Origin: Escherichia coli
GTDB taxonomy: Bacteria; Pseudomonadota; Gammaproteobacteria; Enterobacterales; Enterobacteriaceae
Assembly: GCF_003334355.1 (NCBI RefSeq)
Contig: NZ_QOWP01000014.1
Direction: 5' to 3' (one strand)
Length of the DNA stretch: 64,000 nucleotides
Shown here: positions 2,718 through 56,356 of the stretch, piece by piece
Numbering within the stretch: position 1 is the stretch's first letter
How the letters are laid out: the number at the start of each line of letters is the position of its first letter
Notes under the pieces: model-generated
What the model saw: the letters and a program-made list of their open reading frames with translations, nothing else
Told to the model about the DNA's origin: nothing
Databases searched by the model: none
Position numbers and translations under genes: made by a program

Positions 2718-3338
2718 ATGAGGTATATAGTTGCCTTAACGGGAGGCATTGGCAGTGGCAAGAGTACCGTTGCCAATGCGTTTGCTGATCTCGGAATTAA
2801 CGTCATTGATGCCGATATTATTGCGCGTCAGGTGGTTGAACCAGGTGCACCTGCGCTACATGCCATTGCTGATCACTTTGGCGCTAACATGATTGCTGCT
2901 GATGGAACATTGCAGCGCCGGGCCTTGCGCGAGCGGATCTTCGCCAACCCGGAAGAGAAAAACTGGCTTAACGCCCTGCTGCATCCGCTGATTCAGCAAG
3001 AGACGCAACACCAGATCCAGCAAGCTACTTCCCCCTATGTACTGTGGGTTGTGCCATTGCTGGTAGAAAACTCACTGTATAAAAAAGCGAATCGAGTGCT
3101 GGTGGTGGATGTCAGCCCAGAAACGCAACTTAAGCGCACCATGCAGCGCGATGATGTAACTCGCGAGCATGTCGAACAAATCCTTGCTGCTCAGGCAACG
3201 CGCGAAGCCCGCCTTGCCGTGGCAGATGACGTCATTGATAATAACGGCGCACCGGATGCTATCGCATCGGATGTTGCCCGCCTGCACGCACACTATTTGC
3301 AGCTTGCGTCGCAGTTTGTCTCACAGGAAAAACCGTAA
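2718..3338 (+). CDS. coaE: Dephospho-CoA kinase
   Basis: 206-aa ORF; N-terminal P-loop [11 protein letters not shown]; stop overlaps zapD start (TAATG). Confidence 0.96.
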
Positions 3339-4081
3339 TGCAGACCCAGGTCCTTTTTGAACATCCACTAAATGAAAAAATGCGTACATGGCTGCGCATT
3401 GAGTTTTTGATTCAGCAACTCACCGTTAATTTACCCATCGTTGACCACGCTGGCGCGCTGCATTTCTTCCATAATGTCAGTGAATTACTGGATGTTTTCG
3501 AGCGCGGCGAAGTCCGCACTGAGCTGTTGAAAGAACTTGACCGGCAGCAACGTAAACTCCAGACCTGGATTGGCGTGCCTGGCGTGGACCAGAGCCGTAT
3601 TGAAGCATTAATTCAGCAGTTAAAAGCGGCGGGGAGCGTATTAATTTCCGCGCCGCGTATCGGGCAATTTCTGCGTGAAGATCGTTTGATTGCTCTGGTG
3701 CGTCAGCGACTGAGCATCCCAGGCGGCTGTTGCAGCTTTGATTTACCTACATTGCACATTTGGCTGCATCTACCCCAGGCGCAGCGCGACAGCCAGGTAG
3801 AAACCTGGATTGCCAGCCTGAACCCGCTCACCCAGGCACTTACCATGGTGCTGGATTTAATTCGCCAGTCGGCCCCCTTCCGTAAACAAACCAGCCTGAA
3901 TGGTTTTTATCAGGATAACGGTGGCGATGCCGACTTGCTGCGCCTGAATCTGTCGCTCGATTCACAGCTTTATCCGCAAATTTCCGGACATAAGAGCCGT
4001 TTTGCCATTCGTTTTATGCCGCTGGACACTGAAAACGGACAGGTACCGGAACGTCTGGATTTCGAACTGGCCTGTTGCTAA
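3338..4081 (+). CDS. zapD: Cell division factor ZapD (YacF)
   Basis: 247-aa ORF; position between coaE and yacG; length matches ZapD. Confidence 0.93.
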
Positions 4082-4090
4082 GGAGTAAAA

Positions 4091-4288
4091 ATGTCAGAAA
4101 CTATTACGGTGAATTGCCCAACCTGCGGGAAAACGGTGGTGTGGGGTGAAATCAGCCCGTTTCGGCCATTTTGCTCCAAACGTTGTCAGCTGATCGACCT
4201 CGGAGAATGGGCTGCTGAAGAAAAACGAATCCCCAGCAGTGGCGATCTTTCCGAAAGCGATGACTGGAGCGAAGAGCCAAAGCAGTGA
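4091..4288 (+). CDS. yacG: DNA gyrase inhibitor YacG (zinc-finger protein)
   Basis: 65-aa ORF with CPTCGK...CSKRC zinc-ribbon cysteines; RBS ggag 9 nt after zapD stop. Confidence 0.93.
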
Positions 4289-4295
4289 CATTTGT

Positions 4296-4512
4296 CTGAT
4301 GCCGCACGTAGGCCTGATAAGACGCGGGCAGCGTCGCATCAGGCATCTTGTGCAAATGTCGGATGCGGCGTGAACGCCTTATCTGACCTACAAAAACAAA
4401 TTTATCAATGAGTTATAAATCCCTGTAGGCCTGATAAGACGCGCCAGCGTCGCATCAGGCATCGTGTGCGAATGTCAGATGCGGCGAAAACGCCTTATCT
4501 GACATACACACG
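4296..4512. repeat. REP/BIME cluster (two REP-pair units) between convergent yacG and mutT
   Basis: Two copies of the motif ggcctgataagacgcg..cagcgtcgcatcaggc and two copies of gatgcggcg..aacgccttatctgac in inverted arrangement; classic enterobacterial REP palindromes. Confidence 0.9.
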
Positions 4513-4893
4513 CTTAAGCTTCGCAATTACCTGTTCATTGGCTGGCGGAAACTCATCGGCATTAAGACCGACCAGCGACATCCACTCACCGGGTTGCCCT
4601 TCTTTACCCCACGGCTCCCCTTCCCAGCGTTCGACCAGCCAAAACCACAGTGTTATATGCCTGTCCGGGAATTCATATTCCAGTTTTTCAAATAGCGAAA
4701 AATGTTGGGGGGTAATCCCGACTTCTTCCTGAAGTTCACGCACCACCGCCTGTTCCGGCGTTTCACCCATTTCAATTTTACCGCCGGGAAACTCCAGTTT
4801 ATTCGCCATGTGCGCATCTGCTGCGCGACGCGTTATAAAGATTTCATTGTTCTCGTTGCGAATAATACCTACCGCAATTTGCAGCTTTTTCAT
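4495..4893 (-). CDS. mutT: 8-oxo-dGTP diphosphatase (Nudix hydrolase) MutT
   Basis: 132-aa ORF; Nudix box GGKIEMGETPEQAVVRELQEEVGI; stop codon lies inside the distal REP unit. Confidence 0.95.
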   Translation of the reverse strand: MKKLQIAVGIIRNENNEIFITRRAADAHMANKLEFPGGKIEMGETPEQAVVRELQEEVGITPQHFSLFEKLEYEFPDRHITLWFWLVERWEGEPWGKEGQPGEWMSLVGLNADEFPPANEQVIAKLKRVYVR

Positions 4894-4904
4894 TGTCTTA
4901 AACC

Positions 4905-4935
4905 TATAAAAAAGGCGCAGAATCCTGCGCCTTTT
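4905..4935 (-). terminator. Hairpin with flanking A/T tracts between secA stop and mutT start (attenuator/terminator-like)
   Basis: ggcgcag-aatc-ctgcgcc stem-loop flanked by A-run on one side and T-run on the other; sits in the 59-bp secA-mutT spacer. Confidence 0.5.
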
Positions 4936-4952
4936 ACTTTAACAGTTAGCTT

Positions 4953-7658
4953 TTATTGCAGGCGGCCATGGCACTGCTTGTATTTTTTACCAGAACCGCA
5001 CGGGCAAGGATCGTTACGTCCTACTTTGCGCTCTCCAGTTTGCGCCGCCAGTGCAGCTGCGGCTGCAGAGTCGTCATCCTGATGGCTAAGCTGCTGCATT
5101 TGCGCTAAACGCTCGGCTTCCATACGACGCTGTTGTTCCAGCTCCTCAACCTCTTCAGGCATACGTACCTGGACTTTGCTCAACGTGCTGATAACTTCAT
5201 ATTTTAACGACTCCAGCATCGCTGCAAACATGGAGAACGATTCACGTTTGTATTCCTGCTTCGGATCTTTCTGTGCGTAGCCACGCAGGTGGATACCCTG
5301 ACGCAGATAGTCCATCGCTGCCAGGTGCTCTTTCCACAGGGAGTCAAGCGTTTGCAGCATGACGCCTTTCTCGAAGTGACGCATCATCTCAGCACCAACC
5401 ACTTCTTCTTTACGCTGATACACTTCGATGGACTGCGCCAGAATTCGCTCACGCAGCGTCTCTTCATGCAGTTCTGGTTCTTTATCCAGCCACTCGGCAA
5501 TTGGCAAATCGAGGTCGAAATCGTTCTTCAGACGTTCCTGCAGCCCCGGAATATCCCACATTTCTTCCAGCGACTGTGGTGGAATGTAGGCATCAATGGT
5601 CGCTTTGAACACATCTTCACGAATGCTGTTAATGGTTTCGCTCACATCGCTGACATCCAACAGTTCGTTACGCTGGGAGTAAATGGCGCGACGCTGATCG
5701 TTAGCCACGTCATCATATTCCAGCAGTTGCTTACGAATGTCGAAGTTACGGCTTTCAACTTTACGCTGGGCGTTGGCAATCGCTTTAGTCACCCACGGGT
5801 GTTCAATGGCTTCGCCTGGCTTCATACCCAGTTTACGCATCATGCCGGATACTCGGTCGGAAGCAAAAATACGCATCAGCGCATCTTCCATCGACAGGTA
5901 GAAACGGGAAGAACCAGCATCCCCCTGACGACCAGAACGACCGCGCAACTGGTTATCGATACGACGGGATTCGTGACGCTCGGTACCGATGATATGCAGG
6001 CCACCTGCTTCCAGTACCGCATCGTGACGTACCTGCCAGTCGGCTTTAATTTTTTCAATTTGCTCTGCGGTCGGATTTTCCAGCGCGGCAACTTCTGCCT
6101 GCCAGCTACCACCGAGCACAATATCTGTACCACGACCCGCCATATTGGTCGCGATAGTCACCGCAGCCGGATAACCTGCCTGAGCAACAATCGCCGCTTC
6201 GTTGGCGTGGAATTTGGCGTTCAGGACGTTGTGCTTAATACCGGCTTTGGTCAGTTCGTTTGACACCAGCTCCGATTTTTCGATGGAGATAGTACCCACC
6301 AGCACCGGCTGGCCTTTCGCAGTACGTTCTTTGATATCTTCAATGATCGCCTGAATTTTTTCCGCTTCAGTCATGTAGACCAGGTCCGGCAGATCTTTAC
6401 GAATCATTGGACGGTTGGTCGGAACAACGACGGTATCCAGCTTGTAGATTGAGCTAAATTCGAAAGCTTCGGTATCAGCAGTACCGGTCATCCCCGCCAG
6501 TTTTTCATACAGACGGAAGTAGTTCTGGAAGGTGATCGAAGCCAGCGTTTGGTTTTCGTTCTGGATCTGCACACCTTCTTTCGCTTCCACAGCCTGGTGC
6601 AGACCATCGGACCAGCGACGGCCCTGCATGGTACGACCGGTGTGTTCGTCAACGATGATAACTTCACCATCTTTAACGATGTAGTCGACGTCACGGGTAA
6701 ACAGCGCATGAGCGCGCAGCGCCGCCGTTACGTGGTGCATCAGCATGATGTTGGCCGGAGAGTACAGAGACTCCCCTTCATCCATGATGCCCTCTTTCAC
6801 CAGCAGTTCTTCAATCAGCACCAGACCACGTTCGGTCAGGTTCACCTGGCGAGATTTTTCGTCCACCGAGAAGTGGCCTTCGCCCTGGAAGGTTTCGGAG
6901 TCTTCTTTTTCCTGACGGATCAGGTGCGGAATAATTTTATTCACGCGTTTATACATTTCCGAGCTGTCTTCTGCCGGGCCGGAAATGATCAGCGGTGTAC
7001 GCGCTTCATCGATCAGGATGGAGTCCACTTCGTCCACCAGCGCATAGTGCAGTTTACGCTGTACACGTTCTTCAGGGCTGAACGCCATGTTGTCGCGCAG
7101 GTAGTCAAAGCCGTATTCGTTGTTCGTACCGTAAGTGATGTCAGCTGCGTAAGCTTCGCGCTTTGCCGGTGCTGGCATGCCCGGCAGGTTGATACCGACA
7201 GTCAGGCCAAGGAATTCAAACAGCGGACGGTTGTTTTCGGCGTCACGTTGCGCCAGGTAGTCGTTGACGGTAACTACGTGCACGCCTTTACCGGTTAGTG
7301 CGTTCAGGTAAGCAGGCAGCGTTGCGGTCAGGGTTTTACCTTCACCGGTACGCATTTCGGCGATGCAGCGTTCGTTAAGAACCATACCGCCGAGTAACTG
7401 AACGTCGAAGTGACGCATACCAAAGACGCGCTTACTTGCCTCACGTACCACGGCGAAAGCTTCCGGGATCAGATTTTCCAGCACTTCGCCTTTTTCCAGA
7501 CGTGCACGAAACTCTGCGGTTTTCCCTTTCAGTTCTTCGTCGGAGAGTTTTTCCATCTCCGGTTCCATGGCATTGATGATGTTGACCACTTTGCGCATCC
7601 GGCGCAGGGTGCGATCGTTACGACTACCGAAAACTTTAGTTAATAATTTGATTAGCAT
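4953..7658 (-). CDS. secA: Preprotein translocase ATPase SecA
   Basis: 901-aa ORF; DEAD-like motor motifs and C-terminal zinc-binding tail [14 protein letters not shown]. Confidence 0.98.
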
Positions 7659-9480: not shown

Positions 9481-10632
9481 TTAATCAGCTTGCTTACGCA
9501 GGAATGCTGGAATATCCAGATAATCCGGCTCTTTCGCAGTTTGCGGCGCATTGTCATTCACGACTTTAGCAATCGGCTTCTGCTCCTGGGTCAGCGGAGC
9601 CATCCCGTGCTGCTGGTAGCGATCCATCACTGGCTGCTGAACCTGCTTATTGGTCACCAGAGTGATTTCAGGACGTTTGTCCATGCCGATACCTGTCGCA
9701 ACAACAGTTACGCGCAGCTCGTCATTCATATCCGGGTCAAGAGAAGTACCGATAACCACGGTCGCGTTGTCGGAAGCAAATGCACGGATGGTGTTACCTA
9801 CCGTTTCGAACTCATCCAGACGCAGGTCGAAGCCCGCTGTGATGTTAACCAGCACGCCGCGTGCGCCAGACAGGTCGATATCTTCCAGCAGCGGAGAAGA
9901 GATAGCCATTTCAGCAGCTTCTTCCGCACGGTCTTCACCGCTCGCCACGCCAGAACCCATCATTGCGTAGCCCATTTCAGACATTACGGTGCGTACGTCT
10001 GCAAAGTCCACGTTCATCAAACCCGGACGAGTAATCAGTTCAGCGATACCTTGCACAGCGCCTTTCAGTACATCGTTCGCTGCGCCAAACGCATCCAGCA
10101 GGGAGATACCGCGGCCCAGAACTTTCAGCAGTTTGTCGTTCGGGATAGTGATCAGAGAGTCCACATGCTTGGACAGTTCAGTGATCCCCTGCTCCGCGAA
10201 TGCCATACGCTTCTTGCCTTCAAAGTTGAAAGGCTTAGTGACGACAGCAACGGTCAGGATACCCAAATCTTTTGCCACTTCAGCGACGACTGGTGCTGCA
10301 CCTGTACCGGTACCACCACCCATACCCGCAGCAATAAAGACCATGTCTGCACCTTCCAGCGCAGCACGCAATGCATCGCGATCCTCATCAGCCGCATTGC
10401 GGCCAACTTCTGGATTAGCGCCAGCGCCCAGTCCTTTGGTGATACCGCTACCGATTTGAATCGTCTGTCCAACCGCTGTTTTACGCAGCGCTTGTGCATC
10501 GGTATTTACCGCGAAGAATTCAACACCTTCAATGCGCTCACGCACCATGTGTTCAACAGCATTACCGCCGCCGCCGCCGACGCCGATGACTTTAATCACC
10601 GCGTCATTGGTAAGTTCCATTGGTTCAAACAT
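9481..10632 (-). CDS. ftsZ: Cell division GTPase FtsZ
   Basis: 383-aa ORF; tubulin signature GGGTGTG. Confidence 0.98.
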
Positions 10633-10692
10633 AGTTTCTCTCCGATTTGTGCCTGTCGCCTGAGGCCGTAATCATCGTCGGCCTCATAAAAA

Positions 10693-11955
10693 TTAAAACT
10701 CTTTTCGCAGCCAACTATTGAGTCGCTTGATCCACGAGCCAACTGATGCTGTAACACGTTTTTCTACTTCAGCTTCACCGTTAAGATGTGACTCTTTCCC
10801 ATAGTGAAGCAATCCCACCGCCGTCGAATAATACGGCTCCTGAGCATAATCCGTTAAACCGGTAATGTTCAGCGGCGCGCCGATACGCACTTGCGTATGA
10901 AACACGCGCTGAGCACAGGCTGCAAGACCTTCGATCTGCGCTGCGCCACCGGTTAATACAATGCCTGCCGCCAGGTGATGTTTAACCCCTTGTTGGCGAA
11001 GCTTTTCCTGCAACTGCAATATCTCTTCGTTGACCAGGTTGAGCAGCTCGGTATAGCGCGGCTCGATCACCTCTGCCAGGGTCTGACGTTGCAGACTCCG
11101 CGGCGGACGACCACCTACGCTCGGCACTTCCACGCTCTCATCTTTTCCAACGATGGAACCCAGCGCACAACCGTGGCGAACTTTAATCGCTTCGGCGTCG
11201 CTTGGCGGCGTGCCAAAGGCGTAAGCGATATCACTGGTCACGACATTGCCAGCATAAGGAATTACCTTAGTGTGGCGCAATGCCCCACCGGTATAAACGG
11301 CGATATCCATTGTACCACCACCGATATCGACGACGCAGACACCCAGTTCACGTTCATCTTCCGTCAATACCGAATAACTTGATGCCAGTCCGGCAAATAT
11401 CAGTTGGTCAACTTTCAGCCCACAACGTTCAACCGCTTTGACGATGTTTTTCGCCATATCGTTGTGACATGTGATCAGGTGCACTTTTGCCTGCATCCGC
11501 ACGCCCGAAAGTCCTACCGGATTCTTGATCCCTTCCTGATAGTCAATCGCATACTCTTGCGGGATCACATGCAGCACACGATGCTCATCGCGCACACGCA
11601 CCGATTTCGCGGTGTGGACGACGTTTTCCACATCTTCTTGCGTTACTTCTTCTTCAGAAATAGGCACCATACCAATTTCATTCTGGCAGCTGATGTGCTT
11701 ACCAGAAAGCGCCAGATATACCGAAGAGATCTGACAATCTGCCATCAATTCTGCCTGGTCAATGGCGCGTTGTACGCACTTGACCACGGATTCGAGGTCG
11801 TTCACCCCGCCTTTATCCATACCACGCGACGGGCAGCTGCCCACGCCAATGATATTGACCATACCGTCGGGCAGAACTTCCCCTACTAAAGCGGCAACCT
11901 TCGCGGTACCAATCTCCAGTCCTACTACCAGTTTTCTGTCCGTCGCCTTGATCAT
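10693..11955 (-). CDS. ftsA: Cell division protein FtsA (actin-like ATPase)
   Basis: 420-aa ORF; actin/Hsp70 fold motifs; 4-nt overlap with ftsQ. Confidence 0.98.
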
Positions 11956-32060: not shown

Positions 32061-32228
32061 TAGTTAAGCAGAAATTAATATCGCTTACTTTAACCACCGC
32101 AGCACAATTAGCTAATTTTACGGATGCAGAACTCACGCTGGCGGGACGTTTTTATTGCGTCAGGGTTGACATCCGTTTTTGTATCCAGTAACTCTAAAAG
32201 CATATCGCATTCATCTGGAGCTGATTTA

Positions 32229-32315
32229 ATGACTCACATCGTTCGCTTTATCGGTCTACTACTACTAAACGCATCTTCTTTGCGCGGTAGACGAGTGAGC
32301 GGCATCCAGCATTAA
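32229..32315 (+). CDS. leuL: leu operon leader peptide
   Basis: 28-codon [31 protein letters not shown] with four consecutive CUA Leu codons; followed by attenuator hairpin. Confidence 0.9.
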
Positions 32316-32338
32316 GCCAGCACGCAGTCAAACAAAAA

Positions 32339-32365
32339 ACCCGCGCCATTGCGCGGGTTTTTTTA
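32339..32365 (+). terminator. leu attenuator (intrinsic terminator)
   Basis: acccgcgc-catt-gcgcgggt stem-loop followed by 7 T, 24 nt after leuL stop and 43 nt before leuA. Confidence 0.9.
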
Positions 32366-38343: not shown

Positions 38344-38570
38344 AAAAAAAACCAGCAGGTATAATCTGCTGGCGGGTGATTTTACACCAATACTCAGTCA
38401 CACATGATGCAGGCAAGTCAACTTTCAGAATTGCGGTCATCCCACTGCATCAGTCCTTCAAGCATGGTTAATCGTTGTGGGACGCTTAACCAACGCAACC
38501 AGCACAACTTCGCTGTCGCGGTAAAATAGTGCTGATAAAACTGACGCATGGGGCACCTCCTTGCTTCATC
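38344..38570 (-). ncRNA. sgrS: Dual-function small RNA SgrS (glucose-phosphate stress)
   Basis: Reverse strand shows the SgrS 3' region ...gcatcatgtgtgactgagtattggtgtaaaatcacccgccagcagattatacctgctggtttttttt (ptsG-pairing segment plus terminator); contains sgrT ORF; divergent from sgrR; 5' end approximate. Confidence 0.88.
38418..38549 (-). CDS. sgrT: Small protein SgrT (glucose transport inhibitor) encoded within SgrS
   Basis: 43-codon ORF MRQFYQHYFTATAKLCWLRWLSVPQRLTMLEGLMQWDDRNSES inside the sgrS transcript. Confidence 0.85.
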   Translation of the reverse strand: MRQFYQHYFTATAKLCWLRWLSVPQRLTMLEGLMQWDDRNSES

Positions 38571-40321: not shown

Positions 40322-40420
40322 TAACGCCGTTCTCAACGGGGTGCCACGCAAACGCGTGCGCTGAGAAAATACCCGTCGAACCTGATCCGGATAACGCCGG
40401 CGAAGGGATTTGAGGCTCCT
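40322..40420 (+). promoter_or_regulatory. sroA: TPP riboswitch (THI element; sroA) in thiBPQ leader
   Basis: Conserved THI-box core ggggtgcc...gctgagaaaatacccgtcgaacctgatccggataacgccggcgaagggatttg about 40 nt upstream of thiB start. Confidence 0.88.
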
Positions 40421-40456
40421 TCTCAAGTCCTTTGCCACTCTTTTTTGAGGTGCAAA

Positions 40457-45550: not shown

Positions 45551-47589
<2,039 letters not shown>

Positions 47590-47599
47590 GGACACGATA

Positions 47600-49102
47600 A
47601 TGACGATTTTTGATAATTATGAAGTGTGGTTTGTCATTGGCAGCCAGCATCTGTATGGCCCGGAAACCCTGCGTCAGGTCACCCAACATGCCGAGCACGT
47701 TGTTAATGCGCTGAATACGGAAGCGAAACTGCCCTGCAAACTGGTGTTGAAACCGCTGGGCACCACGCCGGATGAAATCACCGCTATTTGCCGCGACGCG
47801 AATTACGACGATCGTTGCGCTGGTCTGGTGGTGTGGCTGCACACCTTCTCCCCGGCCAAAATGTGGATCAACGGCCTGACCATGCTCAACAAACCGTTGC
47901 TGCAATTCCACACCCAGTTCAACGCGGCGCTGCCGTGGGACAGTATCGATATGGACTTTATGAACCTGAACCAGACTGCACATGGCGGTCGCGAGTTCGG
48001 CTTCATTGGCGCGCGTATGCGTCAGCAACATGCCGTCGTTACCGGTCACTGGCAGGATAAACAAGCCCATGAGCGTATCGGCTCCTGGATGCGTCAGGCG
48101 GTTTCTAAACAGGATACCCGTCATCTGAAAGTCTGCCGTTTTGGCGATAACATGCGTGAAGTGGCGGTCACCGATGGTGATAAAGTTGCCGCACAGATCA
48201 AGTTCGGTTTCTCCGTCAATACCTGGGCGGTTGGCGATCTGGTGCAGGTGGTGAACTCCATCAGCGACGGCGATGTTAACGCGCTGGTCGATGAGTACGA
48301 AAGCTGCTACACCATGACGCCTGCAACACAAATCCACGGCGAAAAACGACAGAACGTGCTGGAAGCGGCGCGTATTGAGCTGGGGATGAAGCGTTTCCTG
48401 GAACAAGGTGGCTTCCACGCGTTCACCACCACCTTTGAAGATTTGCACGGTCTGAAACAGCTTCCAGGTCTGGCCGTACAGCGTCTGATGCAGCAGGGTT
48501 ACGGCTTTGCGGGCGAAGGCGACTGGAAAACCGCCGCCCTGCTTCGCATCATGAAGGTGATGTCAACCGGTCTGCAGGGCGGCACCTCCTTTATGGAGGA
48601 CTACACCTATCACTTCGAGAAAGGTAATGACCTGGTGCTCGGCTCCCATATGCTGGAAGTCTGCCCGTCGATTGCCGTAGAAGAGAAACCGATCCTCGAC
48701 GTTCAGCATCTCGGTATTGGTGGTAAGGACGATCCTGCCCGACTGATCTTCAATACCCAAACCGGTCCAGCGATTGTCGCCAGCCTGATTGATCTCGGCG
48801 ATCGTTACCGTCTGCTGGTTAACTGTATCGACACGGTGAAAACACCGCACTCCCTGCCGAAACTGCCGGTGGCGAATGCGCTGTGGAAAGCGCAACCGGA
48901 TCTGCCAACTGCTTCCGAAGCGTGGATCCTCGCTGGTGGCGCGCACCATACCGTCTTCAGCCATGCGCTGAACCTCAACGATATGCGCCAGTTCGCCGAG
49001 ATGCACGACATTGAAATCACGGTGATTGATAACGACACCCGCCTGCCAGCGTTTAAAGACGCACTGCGCTGGAACGAAGTGTATTACGGATTTCGTCGCT
49101 AA
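47600..49102 (+). CDS. araA: L-arabinose isomerase
   Basis: 500 aa from internal ATG ([20 protein letters not shown]...). Confidence 0.97.
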
Positions 49103-49105
49103 GTA

Positions 49106-49375
49106 GCCGCATCAGGTATGTAACGCCTGATGCGATGCTGGCGCGTCTTATCAGGCCTACACGTTGCGATTTTGTAGGCCGGATAAGCAAACCGCATCCG
49201 GCATTCAACGCCTGATGCGACGCTGGCGCGTCTTATCAGGCCTACGCGTTCCGATTTTGTAGGCCGGATAAGCAAAGCGCATCCGGCATTCAACGCCTGA
49301 TGCGACGCTGGCGCGTCTTATCAGGCCTACACGCTGCGATTTTGTAGGCCGGATAAGCAAAGCGCATCCGGCACG
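49106..49375. repeat. Tandem BIME array: three copies of an about 85-bp REP-containing unit between araA and araD
   Basis: Unit cgcctgatgcgacgctggcgcgtcttatcaggcctac..cgattttgtaggccggataagcaaagcgcatccggcattcaa repeats with 85-bp period (motif gcgcgtctta at 49141, 49226, 49311). Confidence 0.92.
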
Positions 49376-49386
49376 AAGGAGTCAAC

Positions 49387-50082
49387 ATGTTAGAAGATCT
49401 CAAACGCCAGGTATTAGAAGCCAACCTGGCGCTGCCAAAACACAACCTGGTCACGCTCACATGGGGCAACGTCAGCGCCGTTGATCGCGAGCGCGGCGTC
49501 TTTGTGATCAAACCTTCCGGCGTCGATTACAGCGTCATGACCGCTGACGATATGGTCGTGGTTAGCATCGAAACCGGTGAAGTGGTTGAAGGTACGAAAA
49601 AGCCCTCCTCCGACACGCCAACTCACCGGCTGCTCTATCAGGCATTCCCCTCCATTGGCGGCATTGTGCATACGCACTCGCGCCACGCCACCATCTGGGC
49701 GCAGGCGGGTCAGTCGATTCCAGCAACCGGCACCACCCACGCCGACTATTTCTACGGCACCATTCCCTGCACCCGCAAAATGACCGACGCAGAAATCAAC
49801 GGCGAATATGAGTGGGAAACCGGTAACGTCATCGTAGAAACCTTTGAAAAACAGGGTATCGATGCAGCGCAAATGCCCGGCGTTCTGGTCCATTCCCACG
49901 GCCCGTTTGCATGGGGCAAAAATGCCGAAGATGCGGTGCATAACGCCATCGTGCTGGAAGAGGTCGCTTATATGGGGATATTCTGCCGTCAGTTAGCGCC
50001 GCAGTTACCGGATATGCAGCAAACGCTGCTGGATAAACACTATCTGCGTAAGCATGGCGCGAAGGCATATTACGGGCAGTAA
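49387..50082 (+). CDS. araD: L-ribulose-5-phosphate 4-epimerase
   Basis: 231-aa ORF; class II aldolase/adducin fold; RBS aggag just upstream. Confidence 0.97.
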
Positions 50083-50085
50083 TGA

Positions 50086-50101
50086 CTGTATAAAACCACA
50101 G
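50086..50101 (+). promoter_or_regulatory. LexA (SOS) box upstream of polB
   Basis: ctgtataaaaccacag fits CTGT-N8-ACAG LexA consensus; 55 nt upstream of polB GTG start. Confidence 0.85.
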
Positions 50102-50112
50102 CCAATCAAACG

Positions 50113-50143
50113 AAACCAGGCTATACTCAAGCCTGGTTTTTGA
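50113..50143 (+). terminator. araBAD intrinsic terminator hairpin (overlaps putative polB -10)
   Basis: aaaccaggc-tatactcaa-gcctggttt followed by tt; 30 nt after araD stop. Confidence 0.7.
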
Positions 50144-50155
50144 TGGATTTTCAGC

Positions 50156-52507
50156 GTGGCGCAGGCAGGTTTTATCTTAACCCGACACTGGCGGGACACC
50201 CCGCAAGGGACAGAAGTCTCCTTCTGGCTGGCGACGGACAACGGGCCGTTGCAGGTTACGCTTGCACCGCAAGAGTCCGTGGCGTTTATTCCCGCCGATC
50301 AGGTTCCCCGCGCTCAGCATATTTTGCAGGGTGAACAAGGCTTTCGCCTGACACCGCTGGCGTTAAAGGATTTTCACCGCCAGCCGGTGTATGGCCTTTA
50401 CTGTCGCGCCCATCGCCAATTGATGAATTACGAAAAGCGCCTGCGTGAAGGTGGCGTTACCGTCTACGAGGCCGATGTGCGTCCGCCAGAACGCTATCTG
50501 ATGGAGCGGTTTATCACCTCACCGGTGTGGGTCGAGGGTGATATGCACAATGGCACTATCGTTAATGCCCGTCTGAAACCGCATCCCGACTATCGTCCGC
50601 CGCTCAAGTGGGTTTCTATAGATATTGAAACCACCCGCCACGGTGAGCTGTACTGCATCGGCCTGGAAGGCTGCGGGCAGCGCATCGTTTATATGCTGGG
50701 GCCGGAGAATGGCGACGCCTCCTCGCTTGATTTCGAACTGGAATACGTCGCCAGCCGCCCGCAGTTGCTGGAAAAACTCAACGCCTGGTTTGCCAACTAC
50801 GATCCTGATGTGATCATCGGTTGGAACGTGGTGCAGTTCGATCTGCGAATGCTGCAAAAACATGCCGAGCGTTACCGTCTTCCGCTGCGTCTTGGGCGCG
50901 ATAATAGCGAGCTGGAGTGGCGCGAGCACGGCTTTAAAAACGGCGTCTTTTTTGCCCAGGCTAAAGGTCGGCTAATTATCGACGGTATCGAGGCGCTGAA
51001 ATCCGCGTTCTGGAATTTCTCTTCATTCTCGCTGGAAACTGTCGCTCAGGAGCTATTAGGCGAAGGAAAATCTATCGATAACCCGTGGGATCGAATGGAC
51101 GAAATTGACCGCCGTTTCGCCGAAGATAAACCTGCGCTGGCAACTTATAACCTGAAAGATTGCGAGCTGGTGACGCAGATCTTCCACAAAACTGAAATCA
51201 TGCCATTTTTACTCGAACGGGCAACGGTGAACGGCCTGCCGGTGGACCGACACGGCGGTTCGGTGGCGGCATTTGGTCATCTCTATTTTCCGCGAATGCA
51301 TCGCGCTGGTTATGTCGCGCCTAATCTCGGCGAAGTGCCGCCGCACGCCAGCCCTGGCGGCTACGTGATGGATTCACGGCCAGGGCTTTATGATTCAGTG
51401 CTGGTGCTGGACTATAAAAGCCTGTACCCGTCGATCATCCGCACCTTTCTGATTGATCCCGTCGGGCTGGTGGAAGGCATGGCGCAGCCTGATCCAGAGC
51501 ACAGTACCGAAGGTTTTCTCGATGCCTGGTTCTCGCGAGAAAAACATTGCCTGCCGGAGATTGTGACTAACATCTGGCACGGGCGCGATGAAGCCAAACG
51601 CCAGGATAACAAACCGCTGTCGCAGGCGCTGAAAATCATCATGAATGCCTTTTATGGCGTGCTCGGCACCACCGCCTGCCGCTTCTTCGATCCGCGGCTG
51701 GCATCGTCGATCACCATGCGTGGTCATCAGATCATGCGGCAAACCAAAGCGTTGATTGAAGCACAGGGCTACGACGTTATCTACGGCGATACCGACTCAA
51801 CGTTTGTCTGGCTGAAAGGCGCACATTCGGAAGAAGAAGCGGCGAAAATCGGTCGTGCACTGGTGCAGCACGTTAACGCCTGGTGGGCGGAAACGCTGCA
51901 AAAACAACGGCTGACCAGCGCATTAGAACTGGAGTATGAAACCCATTTCTGCCGTTTTCTGATGCCAACCATTCGCGGAGCCGATACCGGCAGTAAAAAG
52001 CGTTATGCCGGACTGATTCAGGAGGGCGACAAGCAGCGGATGGTGTTTAAAGGGCTGGAAACCGTGCGCACCGACTGGACGCCGCTGGCCCAGCAGTTTC
52101 AGCAGGAGCTATACCTGCGCATCTTCCGCAACGAGCCATATCAGGAATATGTACGCGAAACCATCGACAAACTGATGGCGGGTGAACTGGATGCGCGACT
52201 GGTTTACCGTAAACGCCTTCGCCGTCCGCTGAGCCAGTATCAGCGTAATGTGCCGCCTCATGTACGCGCCGCTCGCCTTGCCGATGAAGAAAACCAAAAG
52301 CGTGGTCGCCCCTTGCAATATCAGAATCGCGGCACCATTAAGTACGTATGGACCACCAACGGCCCGGAGCCGCTGGACTACCAACGTTCACCACTGGATT
52401 ACGAACACTATCTGACCCGCCAGCTACAACCCGTGGCGGAGGGAATACTCCCTTTTATTGAGGATAATTTTGCTACACTTATGACCGGGCAACTTGGGCT
52501 ATTTTGA
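50156..52507 (+). CDS. polB: DNA polymerase II (B-family)
   Basis: 783-aa ORF from GTG; exonuclease motif DIETT and polymerase motif YGDTDS. Confidence 0.97.
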
Positions 52508-56261: not shown

Positions 56262-56356
56262 CGCAGTTCGGTAGGCGGATAAGGCGTTCACGCCGCATCC
56301 GGCAATTGTGCGCCGATTGCCTGATGCGACGCGGCCGCGTCTTATCAGGCCTACAG
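56262..56356. repeat. REP pair between convergent rluA and djlA
   Basis: gcggataaggcgttcacgccgcatccggca and gcctgatgcgacgcggccgcgtcttatcaggcctac REP motifs. Confidence 0.88.

Follow-up and report, generated by a model that had tools for sequence, protein, structure and literature searches.

Within the 64,000-nt stretch of Escherichia coli DNA analyzed here (the window), the genes araB, araA and araD precede the gene for DNA polymerase II, and each of them was assigned by an NCBIfam equivalog match (Table 1). The spacer between the araA stop codon and the araD start codon (49103-49386) is 284 bp long, equal in length to that of K-12 MG1655 (66551-66834), and is occupied by a wholly extragenic tandem array. 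Tandem Repeats Finder (TRF) reported it as the sole array, with 93% matches, no indels and a score of 464, and an independent repeat search recovered three in-register copies, 85 bp apart and 92-93% identical. Both searches thus bear out the first-pass annotation, which had described three near-identical 85-bp REP units in this spacer. Compared with one another, the units agree at 81/85, 77/85 and 77/85 positions, the two lower values reflecting the third unit, at whose end the araD leader stands in place of a linker. The three full units are preceded, directly after the araA stop codon, by a remnant of a fourth, which is conserved in all aligned E. coli alleles. At the other end the last REP lies 14 nt from the araD ATG, and its distance to the Shine-Dalgarno sequence, earlier put at about 10 nt, is in fact 3 nt.

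Rfam matches at gathering level elsewhere in the window are consistent with its being colinear with the reverse complement of the 52-116 kb region of K-12, namely SgrS (38344-38570, minus strand), the leucine operon leader (32215-32364, plus), the TPP riboswitch (40327-40426, plus), PssrA (10624-10713, minus) and STnc40 (4908-4977, minus).

Table 1. Genes and repeat elements at the araA-araD junction (positions in the window)
Feature	Position	Strand	Remarks
araB (ribulokinase)	45889-47589		NCBIfam equivalog match, far above cut-off
araA (L-arabinose isomerase)	47600-49102	+	NCBIfam NF002795 equivalog, 897.8 bits vs cut-off 622; stop TAA 49100-49102
Remnant of fourth unit, ~20 nt	49103-49124		Partial inverted REP head GCCGCATCAGGT (49106-49117) and 7-nt linker ATGTAAC
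Whole BIME-2 array	49107-49373		3.1 units of 85 bp; TRF, repeat search, linker sequences
z2 REP no. 1	49125-49160	+	GCCTGATGCGATGCTGGCGCGTCTTATCAGGCCTAC; one mismatch to the Durrant 2024 long REP; IS621 target 11-mer at 49150
y REP no. 1	49174-49202	-	Reads GCCGGATGCGGTTTGCTTATCCGGCCTAC on the minus strand
z2 REP no. 2	49210-49245	+	Identical to the published long REP sequence
y REP no. 2	49259-49287	-	
z2 REP no. 3	49295-49330	+	
y REP no. 3	49344-49372	-	Ends 3 nt short of the araD Shine-Dalgarno
araD Shine-Dalgarno AAGGAG	49376-49381	+	Sequence; unpaired in the MFE fold of 49085-49400
araD (L-ribulose-5-phosphate 4-epimerase)	49387-50082	+	NCBIfam TIGR00760 equivalog, 449 bits vs cut-off 389.1
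DNA polymerase II gene	50156-52507		NCBIfam equivalog match, far above cut-off

Anatomy and class of the repeat unit

Each 85-bp unit is composed of a 36-nt z2 REP on the plus strand (GCCTGATGCGACGCTGGCGCGTCTTATCAGGCCTAC), a 13-nt tail-to-tail linker, a 29-nt y REP on the minus strand (GCCGGATGCGCTTTGCTTATCCGGCCTAC) and a 7-nt head-to-head linker, and in total the array holds six REP palindromes in alternating orientation, three of them long (z2) and three short (y). The tail-to-tail linkers are ACGYTGCGATTTT-like, the head-to-head linkers are ATTCAAC, and the three y-type REPs read GCCGGATGCG..CTTATCCGGCCTAC. Two of the z2 36-mers are identical to GCCTGATGCGACGCTGGCGCGTCTTATCAGGCCTAC and the other, z2 no. 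1, is 1 nt away. The 36-mer of units 2 and 3 is the long REP query sequence quoted by Durrant (2024), and the 36-nt long REP carries the name z2 in three earlier studies (Ton-Hoang et al., 2012; Qian et al., 2015; Sutormin et al., 2019).

Two classes of BIME were considered. In BIME-2 elements, z2 and y REPs are joined by a short S linker and flanked by s, l or r motifs, and the elements occur in tandem with a copy number that varies among strains; a BIME-1 is a single pair of z1 and y REPs separated by a long L linker, in which an IHF site is often found (Ton-Hoang et al., 2012). The array resembles BIME-1, and the IHF-binding RIB-RIP elements, in having a y REP and an inverted z-type REP; it differs from them in that they are single-copy, with z1 and a long L linker with an IHF site, none of which is present here. 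It combines y and z2 REPs, an alternating orientation with short linkers, tandem copies of variable number, an extragenic position and a catalogued K-12 orthologue. On sequence grounds the array is a BIME-2, having every sequence feature of that class and none of those that set BIME-1 apart. Identity as a BIME-1 or RIB-RIP element was rejected on three counts, the missing WATCAANNNNTTR match, the 13-nt linkers and the long z2-type z REPs. The recognition of a BIME/REP tandem array in the first-pass annotation is therefore confirmed by both its architecture and its K-12 catalogue entry; the accompanying suggestion of IHF binding found no support, as the linkers are 13 nt long, no long L linker is present and no match to WATCAANNNNTTR occurs in 49103-49386.

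Other REPs are present in the window. A z2-y-z2-y cluster at 4308-4513 has a 33-nt tail-to-tail linker with an exact IHF consensus, TATCAATGAGTTA (4403-4415), and it is this kind of BIME that a claim of IHF binding would fit. There are also a REP pair at 56273-56351 and single REP heads at 7594, 22824 and 43792.

Predicted RNA structure and signals

Folded singly, the z2 REP RNA reaches -19.6 kcal/mol and the y REPs -11.8 to -14.3 kcal/mol, with -11.8 for y REP no. 1. The RNA of the whole spacer has a predicted energy of -143.4 kcal/mol (z = -6.2 against shuffles), with the araD Shine-Dalgarno and start codon unpaired, and a fold of 49344-49400 gives the same picture, in that the hairpin of y REP no. 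3 forms and both signals stay unpaired. Sequestration of the Shine-Dalgarno sequence by the last REP is accordingly not predicted, as that sequence and the ATG are free in both folds. At the upstream end, a 10-bp hairpin is predicted between the partial REP head of the remnant and the head of the first z2 (fold of 49103-49140, -19.1 kcal/mol, z -4.8).

On the plus strand from 48600 to 50300 no terminator-like site, that is, a hairpin with a U-tract, was found, and the REP hairpins have no T-runs behind them; neither was a sigma-70-like promoter found in the array. With a C/G ratio of 0.99 and heavily structured RNA, the array would suit Rho poorly and does not appear to be a typical Rho loading site. 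REPs have been reported to stall terminating ribosomes when they lie less than 16 nt from a stop codon (Liang, Rudd and Deutscher, 2015). The first full REP starts 22 nt from the araA TAA, and the 10-bp hairpin, which is not a canonical REP, begins 6 nt past the stop codon and so lies within that distance, where it might act in this way.

Gyrase cleavage and TnpA_REP activity at the K-12 orthologue

The orthologous array of K-12 MG1655 is listed as 'BIMEs2 66566-66813', 247 bp, araD-araA, in table DS3 of Sutormin et al. (2019), and a BIME at araD-A in MG1655 is mentioned by Ton-Hoang et al. (2012). Locus, 284-bp spacer, six-REP layout and linkers are all shared with the window, and identity is about 98% over a 701-nt region; the two differ by point changes only, such as ATCAGG in unit 1 of the window against ATCTGG in K-12 and T-for-C changes in two tail-to-tail linkers of the window array.

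The first-pass annotation had also proposed gyrase binding, which is correct for the K-12 orthologue, the source of the data. Three gyrase cleavage sites were mapped in vivo with ciprofloxacin and three with rifampicin plus ciprofloxacin, so that cleavage persists when transcription is blocked, and the same table carries the annotation 'Espeli, Boccard 1997: 2 cuts' (Sutormin et al., 2019). In the raw data, sites 66663 and 66748 are separated by 85 bp; projected onto the window they become 49274, within the loop of y REP no. 2, and 49189, within that of y REP no. 1. This mapping relies on the equal spacer length and assumes that the reference coordinates of that study are those of MG1655 used here, which the BIME interval supports. 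The positions agree with the preference of gyrase for y REPs and for loops stated by Sutormin et al. (2019).

The locus has also served as a substrate of the REP-associated transposase TnpA_REP. In vitro, this enzyme cuts the araD-A oligonucleotides B315 and B316 at sites in the iREP and the linker, and their recombination yields products with extra REPs (Ton-Hoang et al., 2012). The action of the transposase would be one route by which units are gained or lost, besides unequal recombination or slippage between the direct repeats. The element itself, its class, its cleavage by gyrase and its use as a TnpA_REP substrate are thus all already known from publications on the araA-araD locus.

Variation in unit number among E. 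coli genomes

A comparison of copy number across E. coli had been set as a check on the first-pass annotation, with identical copy number in all strains, together with uniform araBAD coverage, counting against a regulatory role. With a 701-nt query across the junction, matches were obtained in all 5,426 complete E. coli genomes, with spans of 701, 616, 585 and 531 bp in an evenly spaced sample of the ranking; both flanks are present in 5,326 genomes. A second query, in which 250 nt of the araA 3' end were joined to 250 nt of the araD 5' end, gave in another evenly spaced sample spacers of 284, 199 (once 198), 168 and 114 bp, and of 369 bp in one genome. Alignment of representatives identified the spacers of 114, 199, 284 and 369 bp as one, two, three and four whole units, and the 168-bp spacer as one unit followed by a different element, BoxC. 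Copy number is accordingly not identical and ranges from one to four units.

The census rests on the two pooled samples (n=118), as BLAST coverage cannot tell copy numbers apart across the 5,426 genomes, and individual counts are to be read with the caveat that assembly errors in tandem repeats can occur in 'complete' genomes as well. Three units were present in 45/118 genomes (38%), one unit with BoxC in 36/118 (31%), two units in 19/118 (16%) and a single unit in 16/118 (14%); four units and an insertion of IS621 were each met once (1/118, about 1%). A direct count with a junction-specific query found the BoxC allele in 1,566 of the 5,426 genomes (29%), and its agreement with the 31% of the sample suggests that the sampling is representative.

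In the BoxC allele, represented by E. coli MFDS1006657 (L004, 593-671), a BoxC or 'TMECO' triplex-motif element replaces units 2 and 3 and the araD leader upstream of the Shine-Dalgarno sequence, at a site equivalent to 49203-49386 of the window. Its 36-nt core, CCCTCGCCCCTTTGGGGAGAGGGCCGGGGTGAGGGG, has the same sequence as BoxC/'TMECO' no. 3 of Holder et al. (2015, Table 1). The alleles mostly follow the haplotype of the flanks. Nevertheless, both the 168-bp and the 284-bp allele occur among genomes whose flanks are 100% identical to those of the window over 500 nt, and a spacer of 284 bp is found with several classes of flank identity, which together imply turnover, recombination or both.

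In the four-unit allele of K-12 substr. GM4792 (L006, 351-719; 369-bp spacer) the additional unit is an exact copy of unit 2, and it reflects either recent expansion or faulty assembly. That four units also occur naturally is shown by a diverged array in E. coli SCPM-O-B-8794 (L008), a wild strain and the GTDB representative of E. coli. In E. coli 2011C-4315 (L005, about 2845-4117) the spacer is interrupted by IS621, inserted within a z2 REP tail at ATCAGGCCT^AC. IS621 is an IS110-family element with a bridge-RNA recombinase, and the insertion point is its published natural target 11-mer, which occurs three times in the window array, once per z2 REP (49150, 49235 and 49320).

The araA-araD junction in other species

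A scan based on AraD, with one genome per species, returned 80 loci, 78 of them with a measurable araA-araD spacer. Outside Escherichia the spacers measure 11-184 bp. A length of 44-57 bp was found in 28 of the 78, each with a single GC-rich hairpin that in several (e.g., Leclercia, Silvania) has a T-run behind it; many others, about 86-105 bp long, hold one inverted REP pair (Citrobacter, Salmonella, Enterobacter, Kluyvera), whose y-like REP adjoins the Shine-Dalgarno sequence as it does in E. coli. BoxC-like elements (CCCTCTCCC/GGGAGAGGG) were seen in Klebsiella, Pseudocitrobacter, Kluyvera and others. In 77 of the 78 measurable spacers across the Enterobacteriaceae there is some form of stable, GC-rich palindrome, and Citrobacter sp. 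MGH106 (L024), with an 11-bp spacer (GGGTGATAAAC), is the only species among the 78 that has none. Arrays of three or four units were confined, among these 78 spacers, to E. coli and Escherichia sp. MOD1-EC7003, and E. albertii has one unit. The araA-araD junction is an old and recurrent site of palindromic elements, and their tandem expansion is specific to Escherichia.

Two side observations came from the same scan. In the 51-bp spacers of four Leclercia and Silvania loci (L015, L034, L052 and L057), a single GC-rich hairpin leads into TTTTTT, behind which comes the araD Shine-Dalgarno sequence; such an arrangement resembles an intrinsic terminator or attenuator within the operon. A contig labelled Chryseobacterium sp. 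18061 (L046) carries an enterobacterial araA-araD junction with an AraD 95% identical and an E. coli-type REP pair, and is probably contamination or a mislabelled assembly.

Possible effects on araBAD expression

The intercistronic REPs of malE-malF and hisJ-hisQ are classic, experimentally tested mRNA stabilizers. The araA-araD array is like them in placing REP hairpins in the intercistronic gap of a sugar or amino-acid operon, where protection of the upstream mRNA is expected, and differs in that the effect there rests on experiment and here on analogy. By analogy with REP325 (below), the six hairpins of the array (about -12 to -20 kcal/mol each) would, when araBAD is transcribed, shield the upstream araBA mRNA from 3'-to-5' exonucleases, and they would also mildly attenuate read-through into araD.

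A closer parallel is the REP325 array, in which six y/z2 units separate yjdM from yjdN; its deletion lowers yjdM mRNA and raises yjdN mRNA, and it gives rise to a ladder of hairpin-terminated transcripts (2026 preprint). Attenuation by REP325 was sensitive to bicyclomycin, that is, Rho-dependent, and was observed with the full array only and not with fragments of 2-4 hairpins; the effects of REPs are described there as strongly context-dependent, and tandem gene pairs separated by REPs showed a biased upstream/downstream expression genome-wide (2026 preprint). The ara array shares with REP325 the tandem y/z2 REP pairs in an operon gap and homologous units, as seen in a match to Rfam RF02564. 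It differs in size and spacing, with three units and a 7-nt head-to-head linker against the six units (12 hairpins) and the longer 'l' linker of REP325, and a dual function as stabilizer and attenuator has been demonstrated for REP325 only. If the parallel holds, the AraA:AraD ratio could depend on the number of units, in the way described for REP325 with its 12 hairpins, and the mRNA stabilization, transcriptional pausing and tuning of araA:araD by copy number put forward in the first-pass annotation would be plausible. Our literature search found no transcript or protein measurement of araBA versus araD for any allele of the array.

Several observations speak against a strong effect. The array has no U-tract and would suit Rho poorly, and one-unit, BoxC and 11-bp (Citrobacter sp. 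MGH106) spacers are found in lineages with intact araA and araD frames; the presence of short or BoxC spacers beside intact genes implies that no particular copy number is required. Cells deficient in araD are arabinose-sensitive and accumulate L-ribulose-5-phosphate. Because this intermediate is toxic without enough AraD, strong polarity on araD should be selected against and attenuation must be modest. Taking the evidence together, we contend that the element is very probably the known araA-araD BIME-2 of E. coli, with any attenuation of araD being modest.

Alternative explanations

The alternative that survives best is that the array is near-neutral selfish or recombinogenic DNA, and that the araA-araD gap is simply a permissive site which collects REPs, BoxC and IS621 with no meaningful effect on ara expression. 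Much of the variation described above is consistent with this: five spacer-length classes and an IS621 insertion within a single species, the 168-bp BoxC or 284-bp allele between 100% identical 500-nt flanks, element types that vary by genus, down to a Citrobacter with just 11 bp, and the in vitro activity of TnpA_REP on the araD-A BIME (Ton-Hoang et al., 2012). Against it stand the palindromes in 77 of 78 spacers, which hint at a selected role for a hairpin or else at a very strong insertion preference, and the genome-wide expression bias of REP-separated tandem gene pairs (2026 preprint). We regard neutrality as somewhat improbable.

A second alternative, which we consider unlikely, places the role of the array first at the level of DNA, as a strong, transcription-independent gyrase site or a topological insulator that would keep supercoiling domains apart near the strongly inducible araBAD promoter, with any effects on RNA being incidental. 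The three K-12 gyrase sites that persist with rifampicin speak for this, as does the genome-wide enrichment of BIME-2 elements for cleavage (Sutormin et al., 2019), and the literature reports a preferred location of BIME-2 elements at the edges of supercoiling regions as well as activity as supercoil barriers. However, most BIME-2 elements in table DS3 of Sutormin et al. (2019) have zero cleavage sites, so gyrase targeting is not a general property of the class, and alleles with one unit or with BoxC are common at this junction.

It is highly improbable that the units encode naRNA4-like nucleoid-associated small RNAs that condense DNA with HU. The idea is raised by RF02564, which matches 49262-49327 (60.2 bits against a gathering score of 59.5; 66 nt of the 77-position model) and 49177-49242 (58.4 bits), and by naRNA4 itself being one y-linker-z2 unit of REP325 (Qian et al., 2015). 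The model nevertheless matches every other head-to-head REP pair of the window with a higher score (56273-56351, the best at 79 bits, 4428-4504 and 4311-4388), and a 2026 study by groups including the original authors observed no nucleoid compaction by REP325 or naRNA4. The matches give no specific support for identity with naRNA4, as RF02564 detects head-to-head REP pairs generically and its matches reflect REP homology. The REP cluster at 4308-4513 has two RF02564 matches above the gathering score.

Small proteins from the minus-strand ORFs 49099-49293 and 49290-49511, open for 64 and 73 codons and both with TTG starts, deserve practically no credence, since they have no family matches, are unannotated in every RefSeq record examined, have repeat-derived translations that fuse, split or change length in the one-unit, two-unit and BoxC alleles (because 85 bp is not a multiple of three) and in one case overlap the araD start on the opposite strand, so the first-pass annotation was right to call them repeat artefacts.

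Implications

With the array read as the known araA-araD BIME-2, it can be speculated that the natural allele series, of one to four units or one unit with BoxC, may form a heritable rheostat that sets the level of AraD against those of AraB and AraA, through length-dependent attenuation combined with protection of the upstream mRNA. Such a rheostat could be under selection, because too little AraD leads to toxic L-ribulose-5-phosphate on arabinose. We think this extension decidedly unlikely, and possible selection on the series is part of that same speculation.

A useful product of the present analysis is the allele spectrum itself, with one to four units, BoxC in 29% of genomes and one IS621 insertion. 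Its practical value is that of a natural experiment, as thousands of sequenced E. coli carry one to four units or BoxC at a near-identical and easily inducible junction, and araA-araD would allow a direct test of the proposal that REP arrays set gene expression as 'tunable dials'.
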